DNA from: Haplodiscus bocki
Lineage: Eukaryota
Assembly (NCBI GenBank): GCA_965655095.1
Contig: OZ296652.1
Coordinates: forward strand, 61,442,001 to 61,506,000
DNA length: 64,000 nucleotides
Direction of reading: 5' to 3'
Shown here: positions 1-28,085 of the stretch, one piece after another
Position numbering within the stretch: the first letter of the stretch is position 1
Layout of the letters: each line of letters opens with the position of its first letter
Notes under the pieces: generated by a model
What the model saw: only the letters and a program-made list of their open reading frames with translations
What the model was told of the DNA's origin: nothing
The model's database searches: none
Program-made: the position numbers and the translations under genes

Positions 1-3000
1 CCTGGAAGTCCCGAAAAACAGTTTTAACATAATCATATCATAGGTTCTCTTGAACTGCATCTTGATGTAAAATAGAATTTTTTTCTTTATCTGTTTATTC
101 GAATATTTTTTCCATCATGTTTTCTCCATTATTTTAAAGTATTTTTAGTCTATTAGGTGATCTCTGTTTCGTCGTTCAAATGTTCTTCCCAAATGGAATT
201 ACTTTTCATTTTCATCAAAGAGAACAAGTTCTCCCCAGTTAATAGGATTTTCTTCACGGAAATGTATTTTTAGTTTGTTATTTTCTTATAATGAAAAACT
301 GAAATGTAAACTTCGAAACTTCCTAATTCGAAAATCCATTTTCCGTCTTCTTCTCTTGACAATTTTTTTCCCTAATGCTCTAATTAGTTTTTTCAAATGA
401 CAATCAAGATCTGCCTAATAATTTGTATGCCCAGCTATTCTTCTCTGTTTATCATGCCTAATTTTATATTCTTTTCTGTCAATTGTTGTTTTTATTTTGT
501 GAATAATTTCAGGTTTTTGCCAAAAACTTTTCCTCTCACTTTTAAGTTTTTTGTTTTCTTCTCTTTTTTTTTAGAACTGAAATTATATACTTTCACACTA
601 GTCCAATCTAGCATCCATTTTCCTTCTCCGTGATTCCACGAATCACCTTGGCTCGAAAAGCTGCATTTTAATTTTAAAGGAATATAAAGTGAGAAACGCT
701 CCATTTGTTTATTCAGTTTAACTTCTAAATTTTTTTTGTGGTTTGGATTTTATCCAATAAGAACATCAAAATTTTCAATTTCAGAAGCGAGAACTCTTAA
801 TGCATTTATATTCAATAACTTTGATTCCTTTACCTGATATATTCTTTAATATTTTCTTTTTGAGAGAATTGGTTTTCTTGCCGTTGTGGAAGCTACCACT
901 TTCAGTTTTGTCACTTTTTCAGTTGTTATGTATTTAGACTGTTAGCTAATTTTGTCATTCTTTGTGTCATTCTCTATTTTGATAAAAATGTAATACCGCT
1001 TTTCTGGAATCTGTCTTTATATTTTTTGTTGATTAATAATTATATAAATAATAAGCAGCACAGTAATTGTCGCTGCCAATCGAAGGTTCGCGTCCTTGGC
1101 GCCGTTAAATTTTATTATGAAATGTTTTGCTGCTCTTTTGATAATACATTCAGTTAATATGGTTGGCAGAAGGCAATCATACGAATCAACGTAGTTTTCT
1201 TTTTCGTATGTCACCCATTACGACCTTTACTAGGATAAAGAATAACAGTACCAATATTAGTTTCCAAATTACTGTCTCTCATGAATATATTACAAATAAT
1301 CCTAATTTTTTTAGTACTTCTTTTGTTTTCATATTTGATGTAGCTATATTTTTTGAATTATGAAAGGCAATAAAATCTAAAAGTTAATATCTTTTTTTCA
1401 TCTTCTATTTCTCTTCATTTTATATTAATAGATAAAAGTTCGTTTGGTGCTTCATCTGTCTGCATTGCCATAAAGATCAAATAAACTTTTATTATAAAGT
1501 TTTTGGTTTGTAGCTTTGATGGAATCAACATGTAAGTTTTTTAATCGGAAATGAAATTTTTCTAAAGTTTCCTCAACATATTTTTAAGTTCATTATGTTT
1601 TTCTCTGGAAAATACTCTTGCGTTTAGTTGTTCATATTTTTTTTCCTTTGACCTTTTTATTCAGTCTCTATTGCCTCAAGTTTCATTTCCATCTGATAAT
1701 AACCAGAATCCTGTAGTTTATCTTTTGCTGAGACCTTGTTTTAAAATTCACTTGTCCACAATTCATCATAACTGACATAACTCATCTTTTTATTTATGAT
1801 TTTGATTTAAAAAATTTCATTACTTCCATAAGAAATAAGGTTCTGTTCTAGTTTCTTTCGACGGTTTTTCTTAAGAATAAGCAGATATATATTTTTGATT
1901 TTTTATTTCCAGTAGACAATTCCGTAATCTCATCTCCCATTATATTATACATTTTTTGAAAGCTGGTAACATTGCTACTAATTTTTCAGCCCCTTTAGCT
2001 CATATTATGAATGATTAGGATTCATAATTTTTCGAATCAGCATTAACAACTTGTACGTTTACTACGTTATTTATTCTAATAAATATCTACCATCTAATAC
2101 CTTCCTGGTGGTTTCTCAAAACTGAAAAAAAAAGAATTCTTAGTTTTCAAAAAAGTTTTAGTTTTTTTCTGAAAGCCTTTCTGTGCTAAGATAACCCTGG
2201 AAGTCCCGAAAAACAGTTTTAACATAATCATATCATAGGTTCTCTTGAACTGCATCTTGATGTAAAATAGAATTTTTTTCTTTATCTGTTTATTCGAATA
2301 TTTTTTCCATCATGTTTTCTCCATTATTTTAAAGTATTTTTAGTCTATTAGGTGATCTCTGTTTCGTCGTTCAAATGTTCTTCCCAAATGGAATTACTTT
2401 TCATTTTCATCAAAGAGAACAAGTTCTCCCCAGTTAATAGGATTTTCTTCACGGAAATGTATTTTTAGTTTGTTATTTTCTTATAATGAAAAACTGAAAT
2501 GTAAACTTCGAAACTTCCTAATTCGAAAATCCATTTTCCGTCTTCTTCTCTTGACAATTTTTTTCCCTAATGCTCTAATTAGTTTTTTCTAATGACAATC
2601 AAGATCTGCCTAATAATTTGTATGCCCAGCTATTCTTCTCTGTTTATCATGCCTAATTTTATATTCTTTTCTGTCAATTGTTGTTTTTATTTTGTGAATA
2701 ATTTCAGGTGTTTGCCAAAAACTTTTCCTCTCACTTTTAAGTTTTTTGTTTTCTTCTCTTTTTGTTTAGAACTGAAATTATATACTTTCACACTAGTCCA
2801 ATCTAGCATCCATTTTCCTTCTCCGTGATTCCACGAATCACCTTGGCTCGAAAAGCTGCATTTTAATTTTAAAGGAATATAAAGTGAGAAACGCTCCATT
2901 TGTTTATTCAGTTTAACTTCTAAATTTTTTTTGTGGTTTGGATTTTATCCAATAAGAACATCAAGATTTTCAATTTTAGAAGCGAGAACTCTTAATGCAT

Positions 3001-6000
3001 TTATATTCAATAACTTTGATTCCTTTACCTGATATATTCTTTAATATTTTCTTTTTGAGAGAATTGGTTTTCTTGCCGTTGTGGAAGCTACCACTTTCAG
3101 TTTTGTCACTTTTTCAGTTGTTATGTATTTAGACTGTTAGCTAATTTTGTCATTCTTTGTGTCATTCTCTATTTTGATAAAAATGTAATACCGCTTTTCT
3201 GGAATCTGTCTTTATATTTTTTGTTGATTAATAATTATATAAATAATAAGCAGCACAGTAATTGTCGCTGCCAATCGAAGGTTCGCGTCCTTGGCGCCGT
3301 TAAATTTTATTATGAAATGTTTTGCTGCTCTTTTGATAATACATTCAGTTAATATGGTTGGCAGAAGGCAATCATACGAATCAACGTAGTTTTCTTTTTC
3401 GTATGTCACCCATTACGACCTTTACTAGGATAAAGAATAACAGTACCAATATTAGTTTCCAAATTACTGTCTCTCATGAATATATTACAAATAATCCTAA
3501 TTTTTTTAGTACTTCTTTTGTTTTCATATTTGATGTAGCTATATTTTTTGAATTATGAAAGGCAATAAAATCTAAAAGTTAATATCTTTTTTTCATCTTC
3601 TATTTCTCTTCATTTTATATTAATAGATAAAAGTTCGTTTGGTGCTTCATCTGTCTGCATTGCCATAAAGATCAAATAAACTTTTATTATAAAGTTTTTG
3701 GTTTGTAGCTTTGATGGAATCAACATGTAAGTTTTTTAATCGGAAATGAAATTTTTCTAAAGTTTCCTCAACATATTTTTAAGTTCATTATGTTTTTCTC
3801 TGGAAAATACTCTTGCGTTTAGTTGTTCATATTTTTTTTCCTTTGACCTTTTTATTCAGTCTCTATTGCCTCAAGTTTCATTTCCATCTGATAATAACCA
3901 GAATCCTGTAGTTTATCTTTTGCTGAGACCTTGTTTTAAAATTCACTTGTCCACAATTCATCATAACTGACATAACTCATCTTTTTATTTATGATTTTGA
4001 TTTAAAAAATTTCATTACTTCCATAAGAAATAAGGTTCTGTTCTAGTTTCTTTCGACGGTTTTTCTTAAGAATAAGCAGATATATATTTTTGATTTTTTA
4101 TTTCCAGTAGACAATTCCGTAATCTCATCTCCCATTATATTATACATTTTTTGAAAGCTGGTAACATTGCTACTAATTTTTCAGCCCCTTTAGCTCATAT
4201 TATGAATGATTAGGATTCATAATTTTTCGAATCAGCATTAACAACTTGTACGTTTACTACGTTATTTATTCTAATAAATATCTACCATCTAATACCTTCC
4301 TGGTGGTTTCTCAAAACTGAAAAAAAAAGAATTCTTAGTTTTCAAAAAAGTTTTAGTTTTTTTCTGAAAGCCTTTCTGTGCTAAGATAACCCTGGAAGTC
4401 CCGAAAAACAGTTTTAACATAATCATATCATAGGTTCTCTTGAACTGCATCTTGATGTAAAATAGAATTTTTTTCTTTATCTGTTTATTCGAATATTTTT
4501 TCCATCATGTTTTCTCCATTATTTTAAAGTATTTTTAGTCTATTAGGTGATCTCTGTTCCGTCGTTCAAATGTTCTTCCCAAATGGAATTACTTTTCATT
4601 TTCATCAAAGAGAACAAGTTCTCCCCAGTTAATAGGATTTTCTTCACGGAAATGTATTTTTAGTTTGTTATTTTCTTATAATGAAAAACTGAAATGTAAA
4701 CTTCGAAACTTCCTAATTCGAAAATCCATTTTCCGTCTTCTTCTCTTGACAATTTTTTTCCCTAATGCTCTAATTAGTTTTTTCTAATGACAATCAAGAT
4801 CTGCCTAATAATTTGTATGCCCAGCTATTCTTCTCTGTTTATCATGCCTAATTTTATATTCTTTTCTGTCAATTGTTGTTTTTATTTTGTGAATAATTTC
4901 AGGTTTTTGCCAAAAACTTTTCCTCTCACTTTTAAGTTTTTTGTTTTCTTCTCTTTTTGTTTAGAACTGAAATTATATACTTTCACACTAGTCCAATCTA
5001 GCATCCATTTTCCTTCTCCGTGATTCCACGAATCACCTTGGCTCGAAAAGCTGCATTTTAATTTTAAAGGAATATAAAGTGAGAAACGCTCCATTTGTTT
5101 ATTCAGTTTAACTTCTAAATTTTTTTTGTGGTTTGGATTTTATCCAATAAGAACATCAAGATTTTCAATTTTAGAAGCGAGAACTCTTAATGCATTTATA
5201 TTCAATAACTTTGATTCCTTTACCTGATATATTCTTTAATATTTTCTTTTTGAGAGAATTGGTTTTCTTGCCGTTGTGGAAGCTACCACTTTCAGTTTTG
5301 TCACTTTTTCAGTTGTTATGTATTTAGACTGTTAGCTAATTTTGTCATTCTTTGTGTCATTCTCTATTTTGATAAAAATGTAATACCGCTTTTCTGGAAT
5401 CTGTCTTTATATTTTTTGTTGATTAATAATTATATAAATAATAAGCAGCACAGTAATTGTCGCTGCGAATCGAAGATTCGCGTCCTTGGCGCCGTTAAAT
5501 TTTATTATGAAATGTTTTGCTGTTCTTTTGATAATACATTCAGTTAATATGGTTGGCAGAAGGCAATCATACGAATCAAAGTAGTTTTCTTTTTCGTATG
5601 TCACCCAATACGACCTTTACTAGGATAAAGAATAACAGTACCAATATTAGTTTCCAAATTACTGTCTCTCATGAATATATTACAAATAATCCTAATTTTT
5701 TTAGTACTTCTTTTGTTTTCATATTTGATGTAGCTATATTTTTTGAATTATGAAAGGCAATAAAATCTAAAAGTTAATATCTTTTTTTTCATCTTCTATT
5801 TCTCTTCATTTTATATTAATAGATAAAAGTTCGTTTGGTGCTTCATCTGTCTGCATTGCCATAAAGATCAAATAAACTTTTATTATAAAGTTTTTGGTTT
5901 GTAGCTTTGATGGAATCAACATGTAAGTTTTTTAATCGGAAATCAAAGTTTTCTAAAGTTTCCTCAACATATTTTTAAGTTCATTATGTTTTTCTCTGGA

Positions 6001-8786
6001 AAATACTCTTGCGTTTAGTTGTTCATATTTTTTTTCCTTTGACCTTTTTATTCAGTTTCTATTGCCTCAAGTTTCATTTCCATCTGATAATAACCAGAAT
6101 CCTGTAGTTTATCTTTTGCTGAGACCTTGTTTTAAAATTCACTTGTCCACAATTCATCATAACTGGCATAACTCATCTTTTTATTTATGATTTTGATTTA
6201 AAAAATTTCATTACTTCCATAAGAAATAAGGTTCTGCTCTAGTTTCTTTCGACCGTTTTTCTTAAGAATAAGCAGATATATATTTTTGATTTTTTATTTC
6301 CACTAGACAATTCCGTAATCTCATCTCCCATTATATTATACATTTTTTGAAAGCTGGTAACATTGCTACTAATTTTTCACCCCCTTTAGCTCATATTATG
6401 AATGATTAGGATTCATAATTTTTCGAATCAGCATTAACAACTTGTACGTTTACTACGTTATTTATTCTAATAAATATCTACCATCTAATACCTTCCTGGT
6501 GGTTTCTCAAAACTGAAAAAAAAAGAGAATTCTTAGTTTTCAAAAAAGTTTTAGTTTTTTTCTGAAAGCCTTTCTGTGCTAAGATAACCCTGGAAGTTCC
6601 GAAAAACAGTTTTAACATAATCATATCATAGGTTCTCTTGAACTGCATCTTGATGTAAAATAGAATTTTTTTCTTTATCTGTTTATTCGAATATTTTTTC
6701 CATCATGTTTTCTCCATTATTTTAAAGTATTTTTAGTCTATTAGGTGATCTCTGTTTCGTCGTTCAAATGTTCTTCCCAAATGGAATTACTTTTCATTTT
6801 CATCAAAGAGAACAAGTTCTCCCCAGTTAATAGGATTTTCTTCACGGAAATGTATTTTTAATTTGTTATTTTCTTATAATGAAAAACTGAAATGTAAACT
6901 TCGAAACTTCCTAATTCGAAAATCCATTTTCCGTCTTCTTCTCTTGACAATTTTTTTCCCTAATGCTCTAATTAGTTTTTTCTAATGACAATCAAGATCT
7001 GCCTAATAATTTGTATGCCCAGCTATTCTTCTCTGTTTATCATGCCTAATTTTATATTCTTTTCTGTCAATTGTTGTTTTTATTTTGTGAATAATTTCAG
7101 GTTTTTGCCAAAAACTTTTCCTCTCACTTTTAAGTTTTTTGTTTTCTTCTCTTTTTGTTTAGAACTGAAATTATATACTTTCACACTAGTCCAATCTAGC
7201 ATCCATTTTCCTTCTCCGTGATTCCACGAATCACCTTGGCTCGAAAAGCTGCATTTTAATTTTAAAGGAATATAAAGTGAGAAACGCTCCATTTGTTTAT
7301 TCAGTTTAACTTCTAAATTTTTTTTGTGGTTTGGATTTTATCCAATAAGAACATCAAGATTTTCAATTTTAGAAGCGAGAACTCTTAATGCATTTATATT
7401 CAATAACTTTGATTCCTTTACCTGATATATTCTTTAATATTTTCTTTTTGAGAGAATTGGTTTTCTTGCCGTTGTGGAAGCTACCACTTTCAGTTTTGTC
7501 ACTTTTTCAGTTGTTATGTATTTAGACTGTTAGCTAATTTTGTCATTCTTTGTGTCATTCTCTATTTTGATAAAAATGTAATACCGCTTTTCTGGAATCT
7601 GTCTTTATATTTTTTGTTGATTAATAATTATATAAATAATAAGCAGCACAGTAATTGTCGCTGCGAATCGAAGATTCGCGTCCTTGGCGCCGTTAAATTT
7701 TATTATGAAATGTTTTGCTGTTCTTTTGATAATACATTCAGTTAATATGGTTGGCAGAAGGCAATCATACGAATCAAAGTAGTTTTCTTTTTCGTATGTC
7801 ACCCAATACGACCTTTACTAGGATAAAGAATAACAGTACCAATATTAGTTTCCAAATTACTGTCTCTCATGAATATATTACAAATAATCCTAATTTTTTT
7901 AGTACTTCTTTTGTTTTCATATTTGATGTAGCTATATTTTTTGAATTATGAAAGGCAATAAAATCTAAAAGTTAATATCTTTTTTTTCATCTTCTATTTC
8001 TCTTCATTTTATATTAATAGATAAAAGTTTGTTTGGTGCTTCATCTGTCTGCATTGCCATAAAGATCAAATAAACTTTTATTATAAAGTTTTTGGTTTGT
8101 AGCTTTGATGGAATCAACATGTAAGTTTTTTAATCGGAAATCAAAGTTTTCTAAAGTTTCCTCAACATATTTTTAAGTTCATTATGTTTTTCTCTGGAAA
8201 ATACTCTTGCGTTTAGTTGTTCATATTTTTTTTCCTTTGACCTTTTTATTCAGTTTCTATTGCCTCAAGTTTCATTTCCATCTGATAATAACCAGAATCC
8301 TGTAGTTTATCTTTTGCTGAGACCTTGTTTTAAAATTCACTTGTCCACAATTCATCATAACTGACATAACTCATCTTTTTATTTATGATTTTAATTTAAA
8401 AAATTTCATTACTTCCATAAAAAATAAGGTTCTGCTCTAGTTTCTTTCGACCGTTTTTCTTAAGAATAAGCAGATATATATTTTTGATTTTTCATTTCCA
8501 GTAGACAATTCCGTAATCTCATCTCCCATTATATTATACATTTTTTGAAAGCTGGTAACATTGCTACTAATTTTTCACCCCCTTTAGCTCATATTATGAA
8601 TGATTAGGATTCATAATTTTTCCAATCAGCATTAACAACTTGTACGTTTACTACGTTATTTATTCTAATAAATATCTACCATCTAATACCTTCCTGGTGG
8701 TTTCTCAAAACTGAAAAAAAAAGAGAATTCTTAGTTTTCAAAAAAGTTTTAGTTTTTTTCTGAAAGCCTTTCTGTGCTAAGATAAC
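1..8786. repeat. Four short units (2195, 2195, 2198, 2198 bp), a deletion derivative of the long unit
   Basis: The junction TTCTTCTC|TTGACAAT at 355/356 joins sequences that lie at 9141 and 10817 in the long unit. Confidence 0.95.
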
Positions 8787-9290
8787 CCTGGAAGTCCCGA
8801 AAAACAGTTTTAACATAATCATATCATAGGTTCTCTTGAACTGCATCTTGATGTAAAATAGAATTTTTTTCTTTATCTGTTTATTCGAATATTTTTTCCA
8901 TCATGTTTTCTCCATTATTTTAAAGTATTTTTAGTCTATTAGGTGATCTCTGTTTCGTCGTTCAAATGTTCTTCCCAAATGGAATTACTTTTCATTTTCA
9001 TCAAAGAGAACAAGTTCTCCCCAGTTAATAGGATTTTCTTCACGGAAATGTATTTTTAGTTTGTTATTTTCTTATAATGAAAAACTGAAATGTAAACTTC
9101 GAAACTTCCTAATTCGAAAATCCATTTTCCGTCTTCTTCTCCTTTCAGAGGAGTATCAAAAGAGAATGTCACTGTTGGCTTATTCATTTCAAATTCTAAT
9201 GTCTCTTGCGGTGTTTTTTTGTTTGTTCTGTGAGAGTATCAGTTTTTTTGATATTTAAAATCAAGATCTCATCTTTTTTTTTAGGTGTGT
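8628..9290 (-). pseudogene. Minor capsid (penton)-like gene C, N-terminal part, truncated at the array junction
   Basis: TDTLTEQTKK/PQETLEFEMNKPTVTFSFDTPLKGEEDGKWIFELGSFEVYISVF ... PPGRY*MVDI is paralogous to the gene A N-terminus. It is cut at the unit junction near 8628. Confidence 0.62.
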
Positions 9291-9494
9291 ATGTATTTAA
9301 TATGATAATTGTTAATATTTATAAAGAGGAACTTGATTTATTTTTTAATAGTTGCAAAGTGGAAGTTAAGGTTTAACGTTAAAATCAACCAACTACAAAA
9401 ACAAGTTTTTCTCTTCTGTAGGAAAACTCATAAACCGATTGTAAAAAAAACTATCTACGTCGCGCAAAGTGAATACTTACCGACATGTCAGTAC

Positions 9495-10237
9495 TTAAAT
9501 TTTCCTTAGTTGTAAAGTCAGACTTTCCACCTTTAAAGTCATGTTCGTTTTTTTTATCATCCTCCAAATGAAAAGTTATCTTCCCATTATTAGATTTAGA
9601 TAAATTTTTAAAGTGTTTAATTGTAGGTTTGTCAATTCCTTTAGAACCAGGTGGTTTATCTAATGCAAAGTTTTAACATAGGTTGTCTACAATCATTAAC
9701 AATGCTTCCAGCAATACAGTAAAAAAATAGTCTCTTTTCAATTGTAGGATCACTCTAATAACCAGGAGTAAAAACTGAAAATATTTTGTTCTTCAGTTGT
9801 TTTGAAAACTAATTTATATACTTCCAAATTAGTTAAACCCAACAGTCACTTATCCTTCTCTCGTTTTGAGGCAGTTTCGAGGAAGAAACTTTCCTCCGGT
9901 TTGTTCAGTTCAAATTCTAATTTGTTTTTGGAAGTTTGTCTTTGTTCGTTCAGTAGAAACATCTGTCTTCTCTTTAATTGAATGTAATAAATCGTCTGCC
10001 AATATTGTTTATAAAAAGTTAGATTGTTTGAAGGGGTTTATACATAACGGAAAGTGAATGCTTATCGATGAGTTTGTAGTCCGATATTTGATGATGGAAA
10101 TGTAGATGTCGTTGTCCACCATTAAACTTGACAAAAATACAAACCTTTGTTTCTATATTTTGGGGGCTCATATAAAATTTGTTTGTATTTGAGTTTATAC
10201 TTGAGTTTCTGCATCTGAGGTTTAAACTGAATTTCAT
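9495..10237 (-). pseudogene. Minor capsid (penton)-like gene B; representative copy, long units only
   Basis: YCIAGSIVNDCRQPML/FALDKPPGSKGIDKPTIKHFKNLSKSNNGKITFHLEDDKKNEHDFKG../TLQLRKI* is paralogous to the gene A C-terminus. The start is uncertain. Confidence 0.66.
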
Positions 10238-10239
10238 AC

Positions 10240-11264
10240 TTAGCTTTTCAGTATTTGTAAAGTAGAGGTCATAGTTTCACCGTCAAAGTCAACTCTCTGT
10301 TTCTCATCATCTGCAAAATAAAATTTTATCCTGTTCAGAAGAGTCTTTTTTTATTGTATAGTTATTCGATTTTTAATTTTTTTTTTGTAATCATGTCGTT
10401 TATATAAAGCAAAACTATATAAAATAGGATGTCTACTTCCATTGACACTACTTCCATCAATACAATTATATTTCAAAAGAGTTAAATCAATTCCACTTTT
10501 TTTGACGAGTTTCTTACTCCTATGATTTCCTTTTAAATATTCATTCTTTGTTAATCCCAATTTTGGAATGGTGTAAGAGTTTTCGTCAAGCTTCAATACT
10601 TCACCTTCTCTACAATGCACAATTGAAACTACATTCAATCTAATTTTATCAATTGTTATTATAGGTGCTGTTAGGATTTTATTAATTTCTGTTATCTCAT
10701 AAACTCCAGTTGATAATATAAATACCTCAAAAGCTGGGCTGATATTTTTTTTAATCTATTACATAAACAATTTCATCAATTGTTAACTTCATTCTAAAAA
10801 CAGTAACGTCAATATCTTGATAATTTTTTCCCTAATGCTCTAATTAGTTTTTTCTAATGACAATCAAGATCTGCCTAATAATTTGTATGCCCAGCTATTC
10901 TTCTCTGTTTATCATGCCTAATTTTATATTCTTTTCTGTCAATTGTTGTTTTTATTTTGTGAATAATTTCAGGTTTTTGCCAAAAACTTTTCCTCTCACT
11001 TTTAAGTTTCTTGTTTTCTTCTCTTTTTGTTTAGAACTGAAATTATATACTTTCACACTAGTCCAATCTAGCATCCATTTTCCTTCTCCGTGATTCCACG
11101 AATCACCTTGGCTCGAAAAGCTGCCTTTTAATTTTAAAGGAATATAAAGTGAGAAACGCTCCATTTGTTTATTCAGTTTAACTTCTAAATTTTTTTGTGG
11201 TTTGGATTTTATCCAATAAGAACATCAAGATTTTCAATTTTAGAAGCGAGAACTCTTAATGCAT
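10240..11264 (-). pseudogene. Minor capsid (penton)-like gene A; representative copy (5' half only in short units)
   Basis: KPQKNLEVKLNKQMERFSL..GEGKWML..; STGVYEITEINKIL..ITIDKIRL; CIDGSSVNGSRHPILYSFAL; YFADDEKQRVDFDGETMTSTLQILKS*. The C-terminus fits Polinton/adintovirus penton-like proteins. Many frameshifts. Confidence 0.68.
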
Positions 11265-11426
11265 TTATATTCAATAACTTTGATTCCTTTACCTGATATA
11301 TTCTTTAATTTTTTCTTTTTGAGAGAATTGGTTTTCTTGCCGTTGTGGAAGCTACCACTTTCAGTTTTGTCAGTTTTTTTAGTTGTTATGTATTTAGACT
11401 GTTAGCTAATTTTGTTATTCTTTATG

Positions 11427-11859
11427 TCACTCTATTATGACAAAAATGTAATACCGCTTTTCTGGAATGTGTCTTTATATTTTTTATTGAATAATAATTT
11501 TATAAATAATAAGCAGCACAGTAATTGTTGCTGCGAATCGAAGATTCGCGTCCTTGGCGCCGTTGAATTTTATTATGAAATGTTTTACTGTTCTTTTGAT
11601 AATACATTCAGTTAATATGGTTGGCAGAAGGCAATCATACGAATCAAAGTATTTTTCTTTTTCGTATGTCACCCATTACGACCTTTACTAGGATAAAGAA
11701 TAACAATACCAATATTAGTTTCCAAGTTACTGTCTCTCATGAACATGTTACAAATAATCCTAATTTTTTTAAGTGCTTCTTTTGTTTTCATATTTGATGT
11801 GGCTAGATTTTTTGAATTTTGAAGGGCATGAAAATCTAAAAGTTAATATTTTTTTTCAT
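11427..11859 (-). pseudogene. Adenain-like (Polinton PRO) cysteine protease pseudogene; representative copy, one per unit (e.g. ~968-1400, ~26948-27385)
   Basis: Frameshifted translation across copies: ..ATSNMKTKEVLKKLGL/FMRDSNLETNIG(I/T)VILYPSKG/WVTYEKE(N/K)YFDSYDC..IIKR../(D/N)NYCAAYYLY..KAVLHF. This fits the GxHW...YFDSxG...xCxxYC layout. The catalytic His codon is destroyed at a frameshift. Confidence 0.72.
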
Positions 11860-11869
11860 CTTCTATTTC

Positions 11870-15200: not shown

Positions 15201-18200
15201 CTTGCCGTTGTGGAAGCTACCACTTTCAGTTTTGTCACTTTTTCAGTTGTTATGTATTTAGACTGTTAGCTAATTTTGTCATTCTTTGTGTCATTCTCTA
15301 TTTTGATAAAAATGTAATACCGCTTTTCTGGAATCTGTCTTTATATTTTTTGTTGATTAATAATTATATAAATAATAAGCAGCACAGTAATTGTCGCTGC
15401 GAATCGAAGATTCGCGTCCTTGGCGCCGTTAAATTTTATTATGAAATGTTTTGCTGTTCTTTTGATAATACATTCAGTTAATATGGTTGGCAGAAGGCAA
15501 TCATACGAATCAAAGTAGTTTTCTTTTTCCAATGTCACCCATTACGACCTTTACTAGGATAAAGAATAACAGTACCAATATTAGTTTCCAAATTACTGCC
15601 TCTCATGAATATATTACAAATAATCCTAATTTTTTTAGTACTTCTTTTGTTTTCATATTTGATGTAGCTATATTTTTTGAATTATGAAGGGCATTACAAT
15701 CTAAAAGTTAATATCTTTTTTTTCATCTTCTATTTATCTTCATTTTATATTAATAGATAAAAGTTCGTTTGGTGCTTCATCTGTCTGCATTGCCATAAAG
15801 ATCAAATAAACTTTCATTAAAGTTTTTGGTTTGTAGCTTTGATGGAATCAACATGTAAGTTTTTAATCGGAAATCAAAGTTTTCTAAAGTTTCCTCAACA
15901 TATTTTTAAGTTCATTATGTTTTTGTTTGGAAAATTCTCTTGCGTTTAGTTGTTCATATTTTTTTCCTTTGACTTTTTTATTCAGTTTCTATTGCCTCAA
16001 GTTTCATTGCCATCTGATAATAACCAGAATCCTGTAGTTTATCTTTTGCAGAGACCTTGTTTTAAAATTCACTTGTCCACAATTAATCAAAAGTGACATA
16101 ACTCATCTTTTTGTTATTTATGATTTTGATTTAAAAAATTTCATTACTTCCATAAGAAATAAGGTTCTGCTCTAGTTTGTTTCGACCGTTTTTCTTATTA
16201 ATCAGCAGATATATATTTTTGATTTTTTATTTCCAGTAGACAATTCCGTAATCTCATCTCCCATTATATTATACATTTTTTGAAAGCTGGTAACATTGCT
16301 ACTAATTTTTCACCCCCTTTAGCTCATATTATGAATGATTAGGATTCATAATTTTTCGAATCAGCATTAACAACTTGTAAGTTTACTACGTTATTTATTC
16401 TAATAAATATCTACCATCTAATACCTTCCTGGTGGTTTCTCAAAACTGAAAAAAAAAGAGAATTCTTAATTTTCAAAAAAGTTTTAGTTTTTTCTGAAAG
16501 CCTTTCTATGCTAAGATAACCCTGGAAGTCCCGAAAAAAAGTTTTAACATAATCATATCATAGGTTCTCTTGAACTGCATCTTGATGTAAAATAGAATTT
16601 TTTTCTTTATCTGTTTATTCGAATATTTGTTCCATCATGTTTTCTCCATTATTTTAAAGTATTTTTAGTCTATTAGGTGATCTCTGTTTCGTCGTTCAAA
16701 TGTTCTTCCCAAATGGAATTACTTTTCATTTTCATCAAAGAGAACAAGTTCTCCCAAGTTAATAGGATTTTCTTCACGGAAATGTATTTCTTGTTTGTTA
16801 TTTTCTTATAATGAAAAACTGAAATGTAAACTTCGAAACTTCCTAATTCGAAAATCCATTTTCCGTCTTCTTCTCCTTTCAGAGGAGTATCAAAAGAGAA
16901 TGTCACTGTTGGCTTATTCATTTCAAATTCTAATGTCTCTTGCGGTGTTTTTTTGTTTGTTCTGTGAGAGTATCAGTTTTTTTGATATTTAAAATCAAGA
17001 TCTCATCTTTTTTTTTTAGGTGTGTATGTATTTAATATGATAATTGTTAATATTTATAAAGAGGAACTTGATTTATTTTTTATTAGTTGCAAAGTGGAAG
17101 TTGAGGTTTAACGTTAAAATCAACCAACTACAAAAACAAGTTTTTCTCTTCTATAGGAAAACTCTTTCATAAACAGATTGTTAAAAAACTATATACGTAG
17201 CGCAAAGTGATTACTTACCGACATGTCAGTACTTAAATTTTTATTAGTTGTGATGTCAAAGTTTTATTTTCACCTTTAAAGTCTTGTTCGTTTTTTTTTA
17301 TCATCCTCCAAATGAAAAGTTATCTTCCCATTATTAGATTTAGATAAATTTTTAAAGTGTTTAATTGTAGGTTTGTCAATTCCTTTAGAACCAGGTGGTT
17401 TATCTAATGCAAAGTTTTAACATAGGTTGTCTACAAACTTTAACAATGCTTCCAGCAATACAGTAAAAAAATAGTCTCTTTTCAATTGTAGGATCACTCT
17501 AATAACCAGGAGTAAAAACTGAAAATATTGTGTTCTTCAGTTGTATTGAAAACAGATTTATATACTTCAAAATTAGTTAAACCTAACAGTCACTTATCCT
17601 TTTCTCGTTTTAAGGGAGTTTCGAGGAAGAAACTTTTCTTCTGTTTATTCATTTCAAATTCTAATTTGTTCTGGAAGTTTGTCTCTGTTCGTTCAGTAGA
17701 AACATCTGTCCTCTTCAATTGAATGTAATTAATCGTCTGCCAATATTGTTTATAAAACGATAGATTGTATGAAGGGGTTTATACATAACAGAAAGTGAAT
17801 GCTTATCGATGAGTTTGTAGTCCGATAGTTGATGATGGAAATGTAGAAGTCATTTTCTACCATTAAACTTGACAAAAATACAAACCTTTGTTTCTATAGT
17901 TTGGGGGCTCATATAAAATTTGTTTGTATTTGAGTTTATACTTGAGTTTCTGCATCTGAGGTTTAAACTGAATTTCATACTTAGCTTTTCAGTATTTGTA
18001 AAGTAGAGGTCATAGTTTCACCGTCAAAGTCAACTCTCTGTTTCTCATCATCTGCAAAATAAAATTTTATCCTGTTCAGAAGAGTCTTTTTTTAATGTAT
18101 TAATGTATAGTTATTCGATTTTTAATTTTTTTTTGTAATCATGTCGTTTATATAAAGCAAAACTATATAAAATAGGATGTCTACTTCCATTGACACTACT

Positions 18201-21200
18201 TCCATCAATACAATTACATTTCAAAAGAGTTATAGCAATTCCACTTTTTTAAATGAGTTTCTTACTCCTATGATTTCCTTTTAAATATTCATTCTTTGTT
18301 AATCCCAATTTTGGAATGGTGTAAGATTTTTCGTCAAGCTTCAATACTTCACCTTCTCTACAATGCACAATTAAAACTACATTCAATCTAATTTCATCAA
18401 TTGTTATTATAGGTGCTGTTAGGATATTATTAATTTCTGTTATCTCATAAACTCCAGTTGATAATATAAGTACCTTAAAAGCTGGGTTGATTTATTTTTT
18501 AATCTATTACATAAACAATTTCATCCATTGTTAACTTCATTCTAATAACAGTAACGTCAATATCTTGATAATTTTTTTTCCCCAATGCTCTAATTAGTTT
18601 TTTCTAATGACAATCAAGATCTGCCTAATAATTTGTATGCCCAGCTATTCTTCTCTGTTTATCATGCCTACTTTTATATTCTTTTCTGTCAATTGTTGTT
18701 TTTATTTTGTGAATAATTTCAGGTTTTTGCCAAAAACTTTTCCTCTCATCTTTAAGTTTTTTGTTTTCTTCTCTTTTTGTTTAGAACTGAAATTATATAC
18801 TTTTACACTAGTCCAATCTAGCTTCCATTTTCCTTCTCCGTGATTCCACGAATCACCTTGGCTCGAAAAGCTGCCTTTTAATTTTAAAGGAATATAAAGT
18901 GAGAAACGCTCCATTTGTTTATTCAGTCTAACTCCTAATTTTTTTTGTGGTTTGGATTTCATCCAATAAGAACATCAAGATTTTAAATTTTAATAGCGAG
19001 AACCCTTGATGCATTATCATACAATAACTTTGATTCCTTTACCTGATATATTCTTTATTAATTTCTTCTTTTTGAGAGAACTGGTTTTTTTGCCGTTGTG
19101 GAAGCTACCAAGTTCAGTTTTGTCACTTTTTTTTAATTCTTATGTATTTAGACTGTTAGCTAATTTTGTTATTCTTTGTGTCATTCTCTATTATGACAAA
19201 AATGTAATACCGCTTTTCTGGAATGTGTCTTTATATTTTTTATTGATTAATAATTTTATAAATAATAAGCAGCACAGTAATTGTTGCTGCGAATCCAAGA
19301 TTCGCGTCCTTGGCGCCGTTGAATTTTATTATGAAATGTTTTACTGTTCTTTTGATAATACATTCAGTTAATATGGTTGGCAGAAGGCAATCATACGAAT
19401 CAAAGTATTTTTCTTTTTCGTATGTCACCCATTACGACCTTTACTAGGATAAAGAATAACAATACCAATATTAGTTTCCAAGTTACTGTCTCTCATGAAC
19501 ATGTTACAAATAATCCTAATTTTTTTAAGTGCTTCTTTTGTTTTCATATTTGATGTGGCTAGATTTTTTGAATTTTGAAGGGCATGAAAATCTAAAAGTT
19601 AATATTTTTTTTTCATCTTCTATTTCTCTTCATTTTATATTCATAGATAAAAGTTCGTTTGGTGCTTCATCTGTCTGCATTGCCATAAAGATCAAATAAA
19701 CTTTTATCATAAAGTATTTGGTTTGTAGCTTTGATGGAATCAACATGTAAGTTTTTTAATCGGAAATCAAAGTTTTCTAAAGTTTCCTCAACATATTTTT
19801 CAGTTCATTATGTTTTTCTTTGGAAAATACTCTTGCGTTTAGTTGTTCATATTTTTTTCCTTTGACTTTTTTATTCAGTTTCTATTGCCTCAAGTTTCAT
19901 TGCCATCTGATAATAACCAGAATCCTGTAGTTTATCTTTTGCAGAGACCTTGTTTTAAAATTCACTTGTCCACAATTAATCAAAAGTGAAATAACTCATC
20001 TTTTTGTTATTTATGATTTTGATTTAAAAAATTTCATTACTTCCATAAGAAATAAGGTTCTGTTCTAGTTTGTTTCGACCGTTTTTCTTATTAATCAGCA
20101 GATATATATTTTTGATTTTTTATTTCCAGTAGACAATTCCGTAATCTCATCTCCCATTATATTATACATTTTTTGAAAGCTGGTAACATTGCTACTAATT
20201 TTTCACCCCCTTTAGCTCATATTATGAATGATTAGGATTCATAATTTTTCGAATCAGCATTAACAACTTGTACGTTTACTACGTTATTTATTCTAATAAA
20301 TATCTACCATCTAATACCTTCCTGGTGGTTTCTCAAAACTGAAAAAAAAGAGAATTCTTAATTTTCAAAAAAGTTTTAGTTTTTTCTGAAAGCCTTTCTA
20401 TGCTAAGATAACCCTGGAAGTCCCGAAAAAAAGTTTTAACATAATCATATCATAGGTTCTCTTGAACTGCATCTTGATGTAAAATAGAATTTTTTTCTTT
20501 ATCTGTTTATTCGAATATTTTTTCCATCATGTTTTCTCCATTATTTTAAAGTATTTTTAGTCTATTAGGTGATCTCTGTTTCGTCGTTCAAATGTTCTTC
20601 CCAAATGGAATTACTTTTCATTTTCATCAAAGAGAACAAGTTCTCCCCAGTTAATAGGATTTTCTTCACGGAAATGTATTTCTTGTTTGTTATTTTCTTA
20701 TAATGAAAAACTGAAATGTAAACTTCGAAACTTCCTAATTCGAAAATCCATTTTCCGTCTTCTTCTCCTTTCAGAGGAGTATCAAAAGAGAATGTCACTG
20801 TTGGCTTATTCATTTCAAATTCTAATGTCTCTTGCGGTGTTTTTTTGTTTGTTCTGTGAGAGTATCAGTTTTTTTGATATTTAAAATCAAGATCTCATCT
20901 TTTTTTTTTTAGGTGTGTATGTATTTAATATGATAATTGTTAATATTTATAAAGAGGAACTTGATTTATTTTTTATTAGTTGCAAAGTGGAAGTTGAGGT
21001 TTAACGTTAAAATCAACCAACTACAAAAACAAGTTTTTCTCTTCTATAGGAAAACTCTTTCATAAACAGATTGTTAAAAAACTATATACGTAGCGCAAAG
21101 TGATTACTTACCGACATGTCAGTACTTAAATTTTTATTAGTTGTGATGTCAAAGTTTTTATTTTCACCTTTAAAGTCTTGTTCGTTTTTTTTATCATCCT

Positions 21201-24200
21201 CCAAATGAAAAGTTATCTTCCCATTATTAGATTTAGATAAATTTTTAAAGTGTTTAATTGTAGGTTTGTCAATTCCTTTAGAACCAGGTGGTTTATCTAA
21301 TGCAAAGTTTTAACATAGGTTGTCTACAATCATTAACAATGCTTCCAGCAATACAGTAAAAAAATAGTCTCTTTTCAATTGTAGGATCACTCTAATGACC
21401 AGGAGTAAAAACTGAAAATATTTTGTTCTTCAGTTGTTTTGAAAACTGATTTATATACTTCCAAATTAGTTAAACCCAACAGTCACTTATCCTTCTCTCG
21501 TTTTGAGGCAGTTTCGAGGAAGAAACTTTCCTCCGGTTTGTTCAGTTCAAATTCTAATTTGTTTTTGGAAGTTTGTCTTTGTTCGTTCAGTAGAAACATC
21601 TGTCTTCTCTTTAATTGAATGTAATAAATCGTCTGCCAATATTGTTTATAAAACGTTAGATTGTATGAAGGGGTTTATACATAACGGAAAGTGAATGCTT
21701 ATCGATGAGTTTGTAGTCCGATATTTGATGATGGAAATGTAGATGTCGTTGTCCACCATTAAACTTGACAAAAATACAAACCTTTGTTTCTATAGTTTGG
21801 GGGCTCATATAAAATTTGTTTGTATTTGAGTTTATACTTGAGTTTCTGCATCTGAGGTTTAAACTGAATTTCATACTTAGCTTTTCAGTATTTGTAAAGT
21901 AGAGGTCATAGTTTCACCGTCAAAGTCAACTCTCTGTTTCTCATCATCTGCAAAATAAAATTTTATCCTGTTCAGAAGAGTCTTTTTTTAATGTATAGTT
22001 ATTCGATTTTTAATTTTTTTTGTAATCATGTCGTTTATATAAAGCAAAACTATATAAAATAGGATGTCTACTTCCATTGACACTACTTCCATCAATACAA
22101 TTACATTTCAAAAGAGTTATAGCAATTCCACTTTTTTAAATGAGTTTCTTACTCCTATGATTTCCTTTTAAATATTCATTCTTTGTTAATCCCAATTTTG
22201 GAATGGTGTAAGATTTTTCGTCAAGCTTCAATACTTCACCTTCTCTACAATGCACAATTAAAACTACATTCAATCTAATTTCATCAATTGTTATTATAGG
22301 TGCTGTTAGGATATTATTAATTTCTGTTATCTCATAAACTCCAGTTGATAATATAAGTACCTTAAAAGCTGGGTTGATTTATTTTTTAATCTATTACATA
22401 AACAATTTCATCCATTGTTAACTTCATTCTAATAACAGTAACGTCAATATCTTGATAATTTTTTTTCCCCAATGCTCTAATTAGTTTTTTCTAATGACAA
22501 TCAAGATCTGCCTAATAATTTGTATGCCCAGCTATTCTTCTCTGTTTATCATGCCTACTTTTATATTCTTTTCTGTCAATTGTTGTTTTTATTTTGTGAA
22601 TAATTTCAGGTTTTTGCCAAAAACTTTTCCTCTCATCTTTAAGTTTTTTGTTTTCTTCTCTTTTTGTTTAGAACTGAAATTATATACTTTTACACTAGTC
22701 CAATCTAGCTTCCATTTTCCTTCTCCGTGATTCCACGAATCACCTTGGCTCGAAAAGCTGCCTTTTAATTTTAAAGGAATATAAAGTGAGAAACGCTCCA
22801 TTTGTTTATTCAGTCTAACTCCTAATTTTTTTTGTGGTTTGGATTTCATCCAATAAGAACATCAAGATTTTAAATTTTAATAGCGAGAACCCTTGATGCA
22901 TTATCATACAATAACTTTGATTCCTTTACCTGATATATTCTTTATTAATTTCTTCTTTTTGAGAGAACTGGTTTTTTTGCCGTTGTGGAAGCTACCAAGT
23001 TCAGTTTTGTCACTTTTTTTTAATTCTTATGTATTTAGACTGTTAGCTAATTTTGTTATTCTTTGTGTCATTCTCTATTGTGACAAAAATGTAATACCGC
23101 TTTTCTGGAATGTGTCTTTATATTTTTTATTGATTAATAATTTTATAAATAATAAGCAGCACAGTAATTGTTGCTGCGAATCGAAGATTCGCGTCCTTGG
23201 CGCCGTTGAATTTTATTATGAAATGTTTTACTGTTCTTTTGATAATACATTCAGTTAATATGGTTGGCAGAAGGCAATCATACGAATCAAAGTATTTTTC
23301 TTTTTCGTATGTCACCCATTACGACCTTTACTAGGATAAAGAATAACAATACCAATATTAGTTTCCAAGTTACTGTCTCTCATGAACATGTTACAAATAA
23401 TCCTAATTTTTTTAAGTGCTTCTTTTGTTTTCATATTTGATGTGGCTAGATTTTTTGAATTTTGAAGGGCATGAAAATCTAAAAGTTAATATTTTTTTTT
23501 CATCTTCTATTTCTCTTCATTTTATATTCATAGATAAAAGTTCGTTTGGTGCTTCATCTGTCTGCATTGCCATAAAGATCAAATAAACTTTTATCATAAA
23601 GTATTTGGTTTGTAGCTTTGATGGAATCAACATGTAAGTTTTTTAATCGGAAATCAAAGTTTTCTAAAGTTTCCTCAACATATTTTTCAGTTCATTATGT
23701 TTTTCTTTGGAAAATACTCTTGCGTTTAGTTGTTCATATTTTTTTCCTTTGACTTTTTTATTCAGTTTCTATTGCCTCAAGTTTCATTGCCATCTGATAA
23801 TAACCAGAATCCTGTAGTTTATCTTTTGCAGAGACCTTGTTTTAAAATTCACTTGTCCACAATTAATCAAAAGTGAAATAACTCATCTTTTTGTTATTTA
23901 TGATTTTGATTTAAAAAATTTCATTACTTCCATAAGAAATAAGGTTCTGTTCTAGTTTGTTTCGACCGTTTTTCTTATTAATCAGCAGATATATATTTTT
24001 GATTTTTTATTTCCAGTAGACAATTCCGTAATCTCATCTCCCATTATATTATACATTTTTTGAAAGCTGGTAACATTGCTACTAATTTTTCACCCCCTTT
24101 AGCTCATATTATGAATGATTAGGATTCATAATTTTTCGAATCAGCATTAACAACTTGTACGTTTACTACGTTATTTATTCTAATAAATATCTACCATCTA

Positions 24201-27200
24201 ATACCTTCCTGGTGGTTTCTCAAAACTGAAAAAAAAGAGAATTCTTAATTTTCAAAAAAGTTTTAGTTTTTTCTGAAAGCCTTTCTATGCTAAGATAACC
24301 CTGGAAGTCCCGAAAAAAAGTTTTAACATAATCATATCATAGGTTCTCTTGAACTGCATCTTGATGTAAAATAGAATTTTTTTCTTTATCTGTTTATTCG
24401 AATATTTTTTCCATCATGTTTTCTCCATTATTTTAAAGTATTTTTAGTCTATTAGGTGATCTCTGTTTCGTCGTTCAAATGTTCTTCCCAAATGGAATTA
24501 CTTTTCATTTTCATCAAAGAGAACAAGTTCTCCCCAGTTAATAGGATTTTCTTCACGGAAATGTATTTCTTGTTTGTTATTTTCTTATAATGAAAAACTG
24601 AAATGTAAACTTCGAAACTTCCTAATTCGAAAATCCATTTTCCGTCTTCTTCTCCTTTCAGAGGAGTATCAAAAGAGAATGTCACTGTTGGCTTATTCAT
24701 TTCAAATTCTAATGTCTCTTGCGGTGTTTTTTTGTTTGTTCTGTGAGAGTATCAGTTTTTTTGATATTTAAAATCAAGATCTCATCTTTTTTTTAGGTGT
24801 GTATGTATTTAATATGATAATTGTTAATATTTATAAAGAGGAACTTGATTTATTTTTTATTAGTTGCAAAGTGGAAGTTGAGGTTTAACGTTAAAATCAA
24901 CCAACTACAAAAACAAGTTTTTCTCTTCTATAGGAAAACTCTTTCATAAACAGATTGTTAAAAAACTATATACGTAGCGCAAAGTGATTACTTACCGACA
25001 TGTCAGTACTTAAATTTTTATTAGTTGTGATGTCAAAGTTTTATTTTCACCTTTAAAGTCTTGTTCGTTTTTTTTATCATCCTCCAAATGAAAAGTTATC
25101 TTCCCATTATTAGATTTAGATAAATTTTTAAAGTGTTTAATTGTAGGTTTGTCAATTCCTTTAGAACCAGGTGGTTTATCTAATGCAAAGTTTTAACATA
25201 GGTTGTCTACAAACTTTAACAATGCTTCCAGCAATACAGTAAAAAAATAGTCTCTTTTCAATTGTAGGATCACTCTAATAACCAGGAGTAAAAACTGAAA
25301 ATATTGTGTTCTTCAGTTGTATTGAAAACAGATTTATATACTTCAAAATTAGTTAAACCTAACAGTCACTTATCCTTTTCTCGTTTTAAGGGAGTTTCGA
25401 GGAAGAAACTTTTCTTCTGTTTATTCATTTCAAATTCTAATTTGTTCTGGAAGTTTGTCTCTGTTCGTTCAGTAGAAACATCTGTCCTCTTCAATTGAAT
25501 GTAATTAATCGTCTGCCAATATTGTTTATAAAACGATAGATTGTATGAAGGGGTTTATACATAACAGAAAGTGAATGCTTATCGATGAGTTTGTAGTCCG
25601 ATAGTTGATGATGGAAATGTAGAAGTCATTTTCTACCATTAAACTTGACAAAAATACAAACCTTTGTTTCTATAGTTTGGGGGCTCATATAAAATTTGTT
25701 TGTATTTGAGTTTATACTTGAGTTTCTGCATCTGAGGTTTAAACTGAATTTCATACTTAGCTTTTCAGTATTTGTAAAGTAGAGGTCATAGTTTCACCGT
25801 CAAAGTCAACTCTCTGTTTCTCATCATCTGCAAAATAAAATTTTATCCTGTTCAGAAGAGTCTTTTTTTAATGTATAGTTATTCGATTTTTAATTTTTTT
25901 TGTAATCATGTCGTTTATATAAAGCAAAACTATATAAAATAGGATGTCTACTTCCATTGACACTACTTCCATCAATACAATTACATTTCAAAAGAGTTAT
26001 AGCAATTCCACTTTTTTAAATGAGTTTCTTACTCCTATGATTTCCTTTTAAATATTCATTCTTTGTTAATCCCAATTTTGGAATGGTGTAAGATTTTTCG
26101 TCAAGCTTCAATACTTCACCTTCTCTACAATGCACAATTAAAACTACATTCAATCTAATTTCATCAATTGTTATTATAGGTGCTGTTAGGATATTATTAA
26201 TTTCTGTTATCTCATAAACTCCAGTTGATAATATAAGTACCTTAAAAGCTGGGTTGATTTATTTTTTAATCTATTACATAAACAATTTCATCCATTGTTA
26301 ACTTCATTCTAATAACAGTAACGTCAATATCTTGATAATTTTTTTTCCCCAATGCTCTAATTAGTTTTTTCTAATGACAATCAAGATCTGCCTAATAATT
26401 TGTATGCCCAGCTATTCTTCTCTGTTTATCATGCCTACTTTTATATTCTTTTCTGTCAATTGTTGTTTTTATTTTGTGAATAATTTCAGGTTTTTGCCAA
26501 AAACTTTTCCTCTCATCTTTAAGTTTTTTGTTTTCTTCTCTTTTTGTTTAGAACTGAAATTATATACTTTTACACTAGTCCAATCTAGCTTCCATTTTCC
26601 TTCTCCGTGATTCCACGAATCACCTTGGCTCGAAAAGCTGCCTTTTAATTTTAAAGGAATATAAAGTGAGAAACGCTCCATTTGTTTATTCAGTCTAACT
26701 CCTAATTTTTTTTGTGGTTTGGATTTCATCCAATAAGAACATCAAGATTTTAAATTTTAATAGCGAGAACCCTTGATGCATTATCATACAATAACTTTGA
26801 TTCCTTTACCTGATATATTCTTTATTAATTTCTTCTTTTTGAGAGAACTGGTTTTTTTGCCGTTGTGGAAGCTACCAAGTTCAGTTTTGTCACTTTTTTT
26901 TAATTCTTATGTATTTAGACTGTTAGCTAATTTTGTTATTCTTTGTGTCATTCTCTATTATGACAAAAATGTAATACCGCTTTTCTGGAATGTGTCTTTA
27001 TATTTTTTATTGATTAATAATTTTATAAATAATAAGCAGCACAGTAATTGTTGCTGCGAATCCAAGATTCGCGTCCTTGGCGCCGTTGAATTTTATTATG
27101 AAATGTTTTACTGTTCTTTTGATAATACATTCAGTTAATATGGTTGGCAGAAGGCAATCATACGAATCAAAGTATTTTTCTTTTTCGTATGTCACCCATT

Positions 27201-28085
27201 ACGACCTTTACTAGGATAAAGAATAACAATACCAATATTAGTTTCCAAGTTACTGTCTCTCATGAACATGTTACAAATAATCCTAATTTTTTTTAAGTGC
27301 TTCTTTTGTTTTCATATTTGATGTGGCTAGATTTTTTGAATTTTGAAGGGCATGAAAATCTAAAAGTTAATATTTTTTTTTCATCTTCTATTTCTCTTCA
27401 TTTTATATTCATAGATAAAAGTTCGTTTGGTGCTTCATCTGTCTGCATTGCCATAAAGATCAAATAAACTTTTATCATAAAGTATTTGGTTTGTAGCTTT
27501 GATGGAATCAACATGTAAGTTTTTTAATCGGAAATCAAAGTTTTCTAAAGTTTCCTCAACATATTTTTCAGTTCATTATGTTTTTCTTTGGAAAATACTC
27601 TTGCGTTTAGTTGTTCATATATTTTTTTTTATTGGACCATTTTATTCAGTTTCTATTGCCTCAAGTTTCATTTCCATCTGAAAATAACCTGAATCCTGTA
27701 GTTTATCTTTTGCAGAGACCTTGTTCTAAAATTCACTTGTCCATAATTAATCAAAAGTGACATAACTCATCTTTTTGTTATTTATGATTTTGATTTAAAA
27801 AATTTCATTACTTCCATAAGAAATAAGGTTCTGCTCTAGTTTGTTTCGACCGTTTTTCTTATTAATCAGCAGGTATGTTTTTAATTTTTTATTTCCAGCA
27901 GACAATTCCGTAATCTCATCTGCCATTATATTATATATTTTTTGATAGCTTGTAACATTGCTACTGTTTTTTCACCTCCTTTAGCTGATGTTATGGATGA
28001 TTCGGGTTTATATTTTTTCGAATCTTGTTTTGGTTTTTCTATGATTTTATCATTTAATGCAACGCGTATTGCTAACTCCATTTGT

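Follow-up and report, generated by a model that had tools for sequence, protein, structure and literature searches.

A 66.1-kb array of kilobase-sized units, arranged head to tail, lies inside one decayed copy of a Maverick/Polinton element and was amplified there in place. The window is the whole 64,000-nucleotide stretch that was analysed (G000:C5:61,442,001-61,506,000 in a 1.5-Gb assembly), to which 80 kb of the left neighbour was added for the array analysis; the array runs from G000:C5:61,403,932 (window position -38068) to window position 28024. The best account, with a probability of roughly 0.78, is that a 3.9-kb segment of an already broken Maverick was copied 20-fold in place by microhomology-mediated tandem duplication, followed by neutral unequal exchange. 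Protein coding by the array is excluded, given the breaks in its genes and the neutral pattern of variation between its units, as the initial annotation of this DNA had held, and the array most likely has no selected function.

Self-BLAST over window positions 1-28024 gave periods of 2195 bp and about 3870 bp, with identities of 93-99.5%. Cut at its true junction, the array resolves into 20 units, 13 long (3866-4122 bp) and seven short (2195-2198 bp), which are ordered from left to right as eight long, seven short and five long. The array of at least 28 kb with 2.2- and 3.9-kb units that had been noticed at the outset is therefore real, and its actual length is 66.1 kb. The portions that fall within the window are listed below.

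1..28024, no strand: right-hand 28 kb of the array, the remainder being at G000:C5:61,403,932-61,442,000, left of the window
1..8617, no strand: short 2.2-kb units, the last four of the seven-unit block, with boundaries at 2029, 4224 and 6420; the first of the four begins just left of the window
8618..28014, no strand: five long units, at 8618-12486, 12487-16352, 16353-20245, 20246-24132 and 24133-28014

The GC content of the array in the window is 28-29%, against 32-41% to its right. No N bases occur in window positions 1-28024 or in the 144 kb examined. The units share one orientation, and comparison of the window with itself revealed no inverted match of at least 300 bp involving the array. 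Unit-specific indels and one 239-bp insertion distinguish the units, and 60-71% of the words sampled from the unit were present in all four listed sequencing runs (two samples of one study, which may include the source sample). No RNA run was listed as containing these words, which carries no information on expression. Outside the array locus, none of the scored candidates (39 of 419 and 40 of 1283) exceeded 80% identity over more than about 100 bp, and a dispersed satellite family was rejected on this basis. No Rfam family was detected in window 8600-34000. The array has head-to-tail kilobase units over tens of kilobases or more (20 units in 66.1 kb), and it is homogenised locally, with 0-1% divergence in its centre and diverged units at its edges (10.5% between the end units); we take it to be a macrosatellite. 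The original description of the units as highly similar applies to neighbours, whose mean divergence is 2.3%, and fails for the end units.

The long unit carries, on the minus strand, the 111-aa gene from about aa 21, a 148-aa gene, a protease gene, penton 1, an internally deleted penton 2 and the 5' part of penton 3. The remnants in one example unit are as follows.

12309..12496, minus strand: what is left of a conserved 111-aa Maverick gene, starting at about aa 21; all 20 units carry a frameshift near aa 50
11913..12243, minus strand: remnant of a conserved 148-aa Maverick gene; all 20 units have a stop at aa 15
11428..11836, minus strand: maturation protease pseudogene, clan CE, adenain-like; frameshift at aa 60-61 in 20 of 20 units
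10246..11209, minus strand: almost complete pseudogene of penton 1 (minor capsid); all 13 long units have a stop at aa 135-136
9511..9996, minus strand: penton pseudogene 2; in all 13 long units about 200 internal codons are deleted and the frame shifts near aa 293-296
8628..9273, minus strand: penton pseudogene 3, 5' part, cut off where units meet; 9046-9273 aligns with aa 3-76

The 3' end of penton 3 survives only past the left end of the array. The short units lack about 1.7 kb, comprising most of penton 1, all of penton 2 and the start of penton 3, and their deletion junction shows a 2-bp overlap, for example at 354/355. Frameshift-aware scores of the genes in the unit were 93-307, compared with 20-45 for shuffled sequences. 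The minus-strand frames are riddled with stops and the longest open stretch within the array is 134 aa, in agreement with the broken reading frames described initially. Five of the six gene remnants have at least one break that recurs in every unit containing them, the sixth being cut by the array boundary; in the protease, a second frameshift between aa 89 and 100 is also present in 20 of 20 units. At protein identities of 35-50%, the frameshift-aware aligner places breaks only to within several codons, so that the counts of shared breaks are approximate. Each long unit has 20-28 breaks, many of them private or specific to sub-groups. Among 20 stop sites at confidently aligned codons, one is present in all units, three in at least 80% of units (49 of 88 stop occurrences) and 17 in fewer than 80%. 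The earlier statement that most lesions are shared is overstated, as only three of 20 stop sites reach 80% of the units. Break density is 2.3-3.1 per 100 aa in the long units and 3.9 in the unamplified flank, which is of the same order.

The identity of these genes was established through unbroken relatives in the same genome; outside collections gave nothing for the broken stretch. With the broken penton stretch as query, none of 90 candidates in the protein collection matched, no Pfam hit was obtained, and the Atlas returned only unrelated epimerase leads, under 0.9. Against its own genome, the same stretch gave 150 scored matches (of 16,980 candidates), many of them in open frames of 356-364 aa. 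Eight such open-frame loci sit in AT-rich elements of 17-19 kb, and the relatives' elements contain polymerase B (PF03175, E 1.9e-18), integrase (PF00665, E 8e-13) and an A32 ATPase (PF04665, E 1.9e-6). A 417-aa relative from a further locus matches the double-jelly-roll capsid (PF21738, E 2.2e-9). Inverted repeats were present in five of the six relative loci viewed at 30 kb, and exact 6-bp target-site duplications in two of three young relatives inspected, one of which has AGTAGT...ACTACT ends.

An unbroken 137-aa protease relative was modelled with a pLDDT of 77.5, and its predicted fold resembles adenain and related proteases. The top four Foldseek rows for this model were adenovirus proteases, with weak E values of 0.13-0.3. 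In VIA-align, adenain was matched with Z 7.4 and rmsd 3.4 over 117 aligned residues, tied with others, and all of ranks 1-29 were annotated as proteases, deubiquitinases or effectors, which we presume, like the protease itself, to belong to clan CE. The unbroken sequence had no Pfam match and none in the PDB under E 0.4. In the alignment of relatives, His61, Trp62 and Gln101 are invariant in 82 of 82 sequences and Cys107 is conserved in 81 of 82; the universal frameshift at aa 60-61 of the array protease falls at the position of the invariant His-Trp. The array remnant itself matches this alignment with E 2.1e-9. An unbroken 356-aa penton relative was modelled with a pLDDT of 69. This model matched the mavirus penton (E 8.2e-7), adenovirus penton base and viral minor capsid proteins (E 8.7e-10), and its VIA-align match had Z 9.2 and rmsd 8.3 over 224 aligned residues; the array penton remnant matches the relatives' alignment with E 3e-23. 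The predicted folds and the remnant matches support the array genes as those of an adenain-like (clan CE) protease and penton-like minor capsid proteins of a Polinton/Maverick. The same assignment had been made from motifs alone, and the frameshift-aware and structural comparisons with Polinton proteins that it called for returned both the adenain-like and the penton match.

Both ends of the array interrupt a gene that continues outside, the 111-aa gene at the right and penton 3 (aa 3-356) at the left. A 10-bp microhomology, TTTTCGAATC, is found at 28015..28024 (the right end), at the left end and at 18 of the 19 internal junctions, the remaining junction having one mismatch. Left of the array are remnants of the 133-aa, 177-aa, ATPase, 281-aa and major capsid genes, then of the polymerase on the opposite strand. 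The main features of the parent element outside the array are listed below.

28025..29171, minus strand: unamplified continuation of the same element, with the start of the 111-aa gene (to 28081) and DNA 72% identical to the neighbouring decayed Maverick
28180-28327, minus strand: weak trace of an HTH gene, score 49
-41752..-42328: A32-like packaging ATPase remnant, score 246
-43382..-45596: double-jelly-roll major capsid remnant, split by a 1-kb insertion
-47616..-45741, strand opposite to the array genes: protein-primed DNA polymerase B remnant, score 631, with 13 frameshifts and 14 stops

The order of genes through the array into the left flank (111-aa, 148-aa, protease, pentons, 133-aa, 177-aa, ATPase, 281-aa, major capsid) is that of the unbroken relatives. 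No match to a retroviral-type integrase was found between -50000 and -36000, where the capsid and polymerase ends are 145 bp apart. An integrase is present in the young relatives and several old ones, and the parent copy is not a complete member of the Maverick/Polinton group because it is absent here. Terminal inverted repeats, which the young relatives have, were sought by comparing window 28025-33000 with -56000..-38100 and gave no inverted match; the ends have possibly decayed or lie further out. DNA identity between the parent and members of the old subfamily is 64-72%. This subfamily is characterised by three pentons, the young family having two; the idea that the third arose as a product of the array was rejected, as array-free old relatives also carry three.

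Over 568 codon columns, variants between units are distributed as 117, 118 and 119 by codon position. They comprise 73 synonymous and 276 non-synonymous changes and 17 stop gains, with omega about 1.14. For the genes of unbroken copies, five sets gave a third-position excess and omega 0.31-0.49. Gene death preceded amplification, because change between units is neutral and breaks are common to all units; the same order had been proposed initially, and the difference in omega between units and unbroken copies bears it out. Neutral codon statistics are uninformative on a role of the array as DNA or RNA. No CpG-specific transition excess exists among the units (16 of 108 CpG sites vs 133 of 992 other C/G sites, p 0.66), and methylation-driven decay was rejected for this reason.

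Divergence between units increases with their distance along the array (Spearman 0.71, the pairs not being independent), from a mean of 2.3% at lag 1 to 10.5% at lag 19, and the unit tree follows position. The short block is 0-1% diverged and contains a duplication offset by three units; two of its units show no difference over 2195 bp, and a second pair is separated by two substitutions. These near-identical units are either very recent or an assembly over-count, which could affect part of the short block. Judged from this gradient, amplification was drawn out and gradual, without a single late burst. The initial proposal of one much later amplification does not agree with a divergence that climbs from 0 to about 10% along the array. 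All dates are relative only.

The proposed sequence of events would begin with the insertion of an old three-penton Maverick, which then decayed. A first dimer may have formed when the 10-mer within the 111-aa gene and its counterpart in penton 3 were joined through slippage or the repair of a break. Misaligned exchange between sisters or homologues, together with conversion, would have enlarged and homogenised the array, most recently in its middle. The 1.7-kb deletion that yielded the short unit occurred in one unit, which was probably amplified in the same way into the block of seven, one late step having a three-unit offset. We infer the exchange mechanism from the pattern of the units only; rolling-circle reinsertion or conversion could yield similar patterns.

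Several other internal arrays were found in the same genome. On another contig, C2, a 225.6-kb array at 150.68-150.90 Mb (182 matches of at least 1 kb) is built from a 1.24-kb unit of an ATPase/281-aa segment, with parent genes on both sides. The neighbouring decayed element contains an array of three copies of a 1545-bp 177-aa/ATPase segment, and a further old copy has a 3.48-kb unit repeated at least 2.2 times, with capsid and polymerase fragments. These three arrays came from a set of 20 old-subfamily loci selected for kinship or proximity, duplication playing no part in the choice (eight relatives, two neighbours and 10 more, mostly in partial views of 20 kb); the loci at C4:96.54 Mb and C9:3.58 Mb were left out of this count, having been chosen for doubled matches. 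Duplications of almost the same module as in the present array occur in younger copies. No internal gene duplication was seen in 16 young elements taken in even steps through the first 100 listed motif matches. In a sample of 20 evenly placed 10-kb windows, one of two Maverick windows had a 1.9-kb direct repeat, and none of the 18 non-Maverick windows had a period of at least 1 kb at 90% identity or more. An array of three 3.37-kb units without a Maverick gene match also exists. The suggestion that capsid and protease genes have a special place in such arrays was not upheld, as the other arrays use ATPase, 177-aa, 281-aa, major capsid and polymerase regions. These samples are small and suggest, short of demonstrating, that kilobase-period arrays are enriched in Mavericks.

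Other explanations of the array carry less weight. That it is largely an artefact of assembly is highly improbable: the short block does contain two pairs of units with no or almost no differences, as an artefact might produce, but units are up to about 10% apart in a position-dependent manner and carry their own indels and the 239-bp insertion. Moreover, the 144 kb examined is free of N, the parent element continues in both flanks, and 60-71% of the sampled unit words recur in all four runs (which may include the source sample). Two points favour an amplified piRNA or siRNA template silencing related Mavericks or viruses, as raised in the initial annotation: small RNAs can come from tandem arrays, and young Mavericks are very numerous in this genome, where a 19-nt protease motif has 1,870 exact matches (control 0). 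The unit matches the young family poorly, however: none of 148 non-overlapping unit 26-mers lay within two mismatches of the 24 young loci tested and two lay within three, whereas the shuffled unit gave 0 and 0 and the same module of a young copy 103 of 150. The near-perfect match to an active target that is expected of a piRNA cluster was thus absent at these loci, all units are head to tail without an inverted match of at least 300 bp, and the other arrays are built from unrelated parts of the element. The silencing idea is weakened accordingly and a present role of this kind is very unlikely; the array may have had such a role in the past, against the old subfamily or a virus absent from the genome. 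Retention as structural chromatin, whether as a heterochromatin block, a boundary or an incipient centromere, is just as hard to credit. It is favoured by AT-rich, locally homogenised kilobase units near the middle of a 119-Mb contig, and by transposon-derived repeats with kilobase monomers that occupy some plant centromeres (PMC3648361). Against it, the array measures just 66 kb at a single locus, was not shared with other contigs among the scored candidates, has host genes from 5 kb away (33261-33746 and 37412-43750) and shows no CpG-specific transition excess among its units.

A further alternative places the cause in the elements themselves: strand-displacement replication or recombination among thousands of copies would make Mavericks inherently prone to tandem amplification of internal segments, and the array would reflect the biology of the element beyond host drift. 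The internal arrays in three of 20 old loci, the repeat in one of two Maverick windows against none of 18 others and the duplication of almost the same module in younger copies all point this way, as do the tandem morphogenic modules reported for related viruses (10.64898/2026.10.13.758929). Yet none of the 16 young elements had an internal gene duplication, the present array formed after gene death, so that the element's own polymerase was not the driver, the 3.37-kb array of three units has no Maverick gene match, and the samples are small. Such proneness is accordingly unlikely, if clearly less so than the alternatives above. Neutral amplification in place, starting from a short microhomology in a dead copy, remains the preferred account of this locus. 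A broader and still doubtful extension of it is that old Mavericks act as a recurrent nursery of macrosatellites, in which any internal segment between short microhomologies may grow to tens or hundreds of kilobases, some arrays perhaps being recruited as chromatin or small-RNA loci. If this is true, thousands of insertions would form a dated series of satellite births in which the parent, the first junction and the state before amplification can be read.

Satellites derived from transposons are already known, and the present array is a well-resolved new variant of them. Maverick/Polinton fossils with polymerase B, A32-type ATPase, double-jelly-roll capsid, penton and cysteine protease genes have been described, most copies being degraded (PMC8097293). 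The young relatives found here agree with these Mavericks in their terminal inverted repeats, 6-bp target-site duplications and, in one case, AGTAGT...ACTACT ends. The present copy differs from them in having three pentons, in being without an integrase or detectable inverted repeats and in the 20-fold amplification of an internal segment. Tandem repeats formed from parts of retrotransposons include CRM1TR and CRM4TR of maize and sobo of potato, which has a 4.7-kb monomer and extends over about 360 kb (PMC3648361). As in these repeats, a segment smaller than the element has become a locus-specific array through illegitimate recombination at short homologies, with local homogenisation. They consist of LTR or UTR DNA in or near centromeres, whereas the unit described here is coding DNA of a virus-like DNA element whose parent is readable on both sides (PMC3648361). 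The Bari1, R1 and hobo arrays of Drosophila resemble it in their size of tens to hundreds of kilobases, in unequal exchange and in internal deletions that amplify as sub-arrays; however, they come mostly from double insertions of whole or near-whole elements, whereas the dimer here arose inside one dead copy (PMC5932611). Another such case is LmiSat34-299 of the locust, a satellite homologous to Polinton coding sequence (PMC4935994). It is a 299-bp monomer recognized by read clustering and a Repbase match, and the passage that presents it gives no parent locus, junction or multi-gene unit (PMC4935994). In Triatoma, Polinton-like sequence adjoining satellite arrays has been mentioned (PMC5983683). 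A literature search confined largely to open-access main texts turned up no account of a kilobase array with several genes per unit within a Maverick.

The origin of a satellite is usually hidden, its source sequence having gone. At this locus the parent, the first junction and a test of neutrality, in the form of dead codons, are all preserved, and independent arrays of different sizes in the same genome make the rates and modes of array birth and growth measurable. For viral or immune mechanisms the array indicates nothing new. In genomes such as this one, dead arrays can inflate gene-level counts of viral capsid or protease copies.

The Maverick load of the Haplodiscus bocki genome is very heavy. 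One 19-nt protease motif has 1,870 exact matches genome-wide (control, 0), a penton search of the assembly returned 16,980 first-look candidates, and of 20 windows of 10 kb sampled at even spacing, 2 lie in Mavericks. Copies of the young family are ~17–19 kb in length, and the identity of their inverted repeats reaches 99.7%. In several old copies, namely the parent element of the window array and those in the assembly stretches L029, L039, L126-L127 and L140, no integrase is found between closely spaced major capsid and polymerase ends, which suggests an integrase-less sub-lineage among the old Mavericks.

Tandem repeats and duplications in or beside Mavericks, with other features at the window locus (contig or window positions; L-numbers denote assembly stretches; negative positions lie left of the window)
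C2:150,678,109-150,903,725 (L124, L125, L088-L102, L049-L053, L043): tandem array in an old Maverick, 225.6 kb
C5, window -74433..-69778: 1545-bp repeat, three units, 96–97% identical, in the second decayed Maverick
C1:159.35 Mb (L126-L127): tandem repeat of a 3.48-kb unit, 98.7%, ≥2.2 copies, with its right end open
C4:96.54 Mb (L029-L030): single internal duplication, 2.57 kb, 96.4%
C9:3.58 Mb (L031-L032): single internal duplication, 3.25 kb, 99.1%
C11:24.72 Mb (L015-L016): single internal duplication, ~2 kb, 81.5%, offset 3.1 kb
C7:43.665 Mb (L136): 3.37-kb array, at least 3 units, 98–99%
C7:80.0 Mb (L160): Maverick with a 1.9-kb direct repeat that is truncated where the stretch ends
Window -34318..-34080 (L005): 239-bp insertion, leftmost unit of the window array only
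Window 33261-33746, 37412-38347, 39257-40647 and 40856-43750: open frames of host genes

The 225.6-kb array on C2 consists of ~182 units of 1.24 kb, with 0.7–9% divergence between sampled units, and its host is an old Maverick other than the parent element of the window array. The unit gives weak matches (scores 55–71) to the end of the ATPase and the start of the 281-aa gene. The array is flanked on one side by the 177-aa gene and pentons, and on the other by the end of the 281-aa gene, major capsid and integrase; no microhomology was identified at its ends.

On C5 itself, the parent element has a second decayed three-penton Maverick (L001, L002) 25 kb to its left, and a third old copy lies left of the second. 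The 1545-bp repeat within the second copy contains the 177-aa gene and the end of the ATPase. Elsewhere, the 3.48-kb unit on C1 is composed of major capsid and polymerase fragments, and the module duplicated on C9 is almost the one amplified in the window array. The 3.37-kb array on C7 yielded no Maverick gene match, and its end adjoins a Maverick fragment. In the Maverick at C7:80.0 Mb the gene order differs, with the protease directly after the major capsid.

The 239-bp insertion in the window array shows 85–93% similarity to a short tandem repeat family located elsewhere in the assembly. Right of the array, the host genes encode a DEAD/Helicase_C/Sec63 helicase, the two long open frames of which lie on either side of a 122-bp tandem repeat, and a domain of Fe-S assembly type (PF01883).
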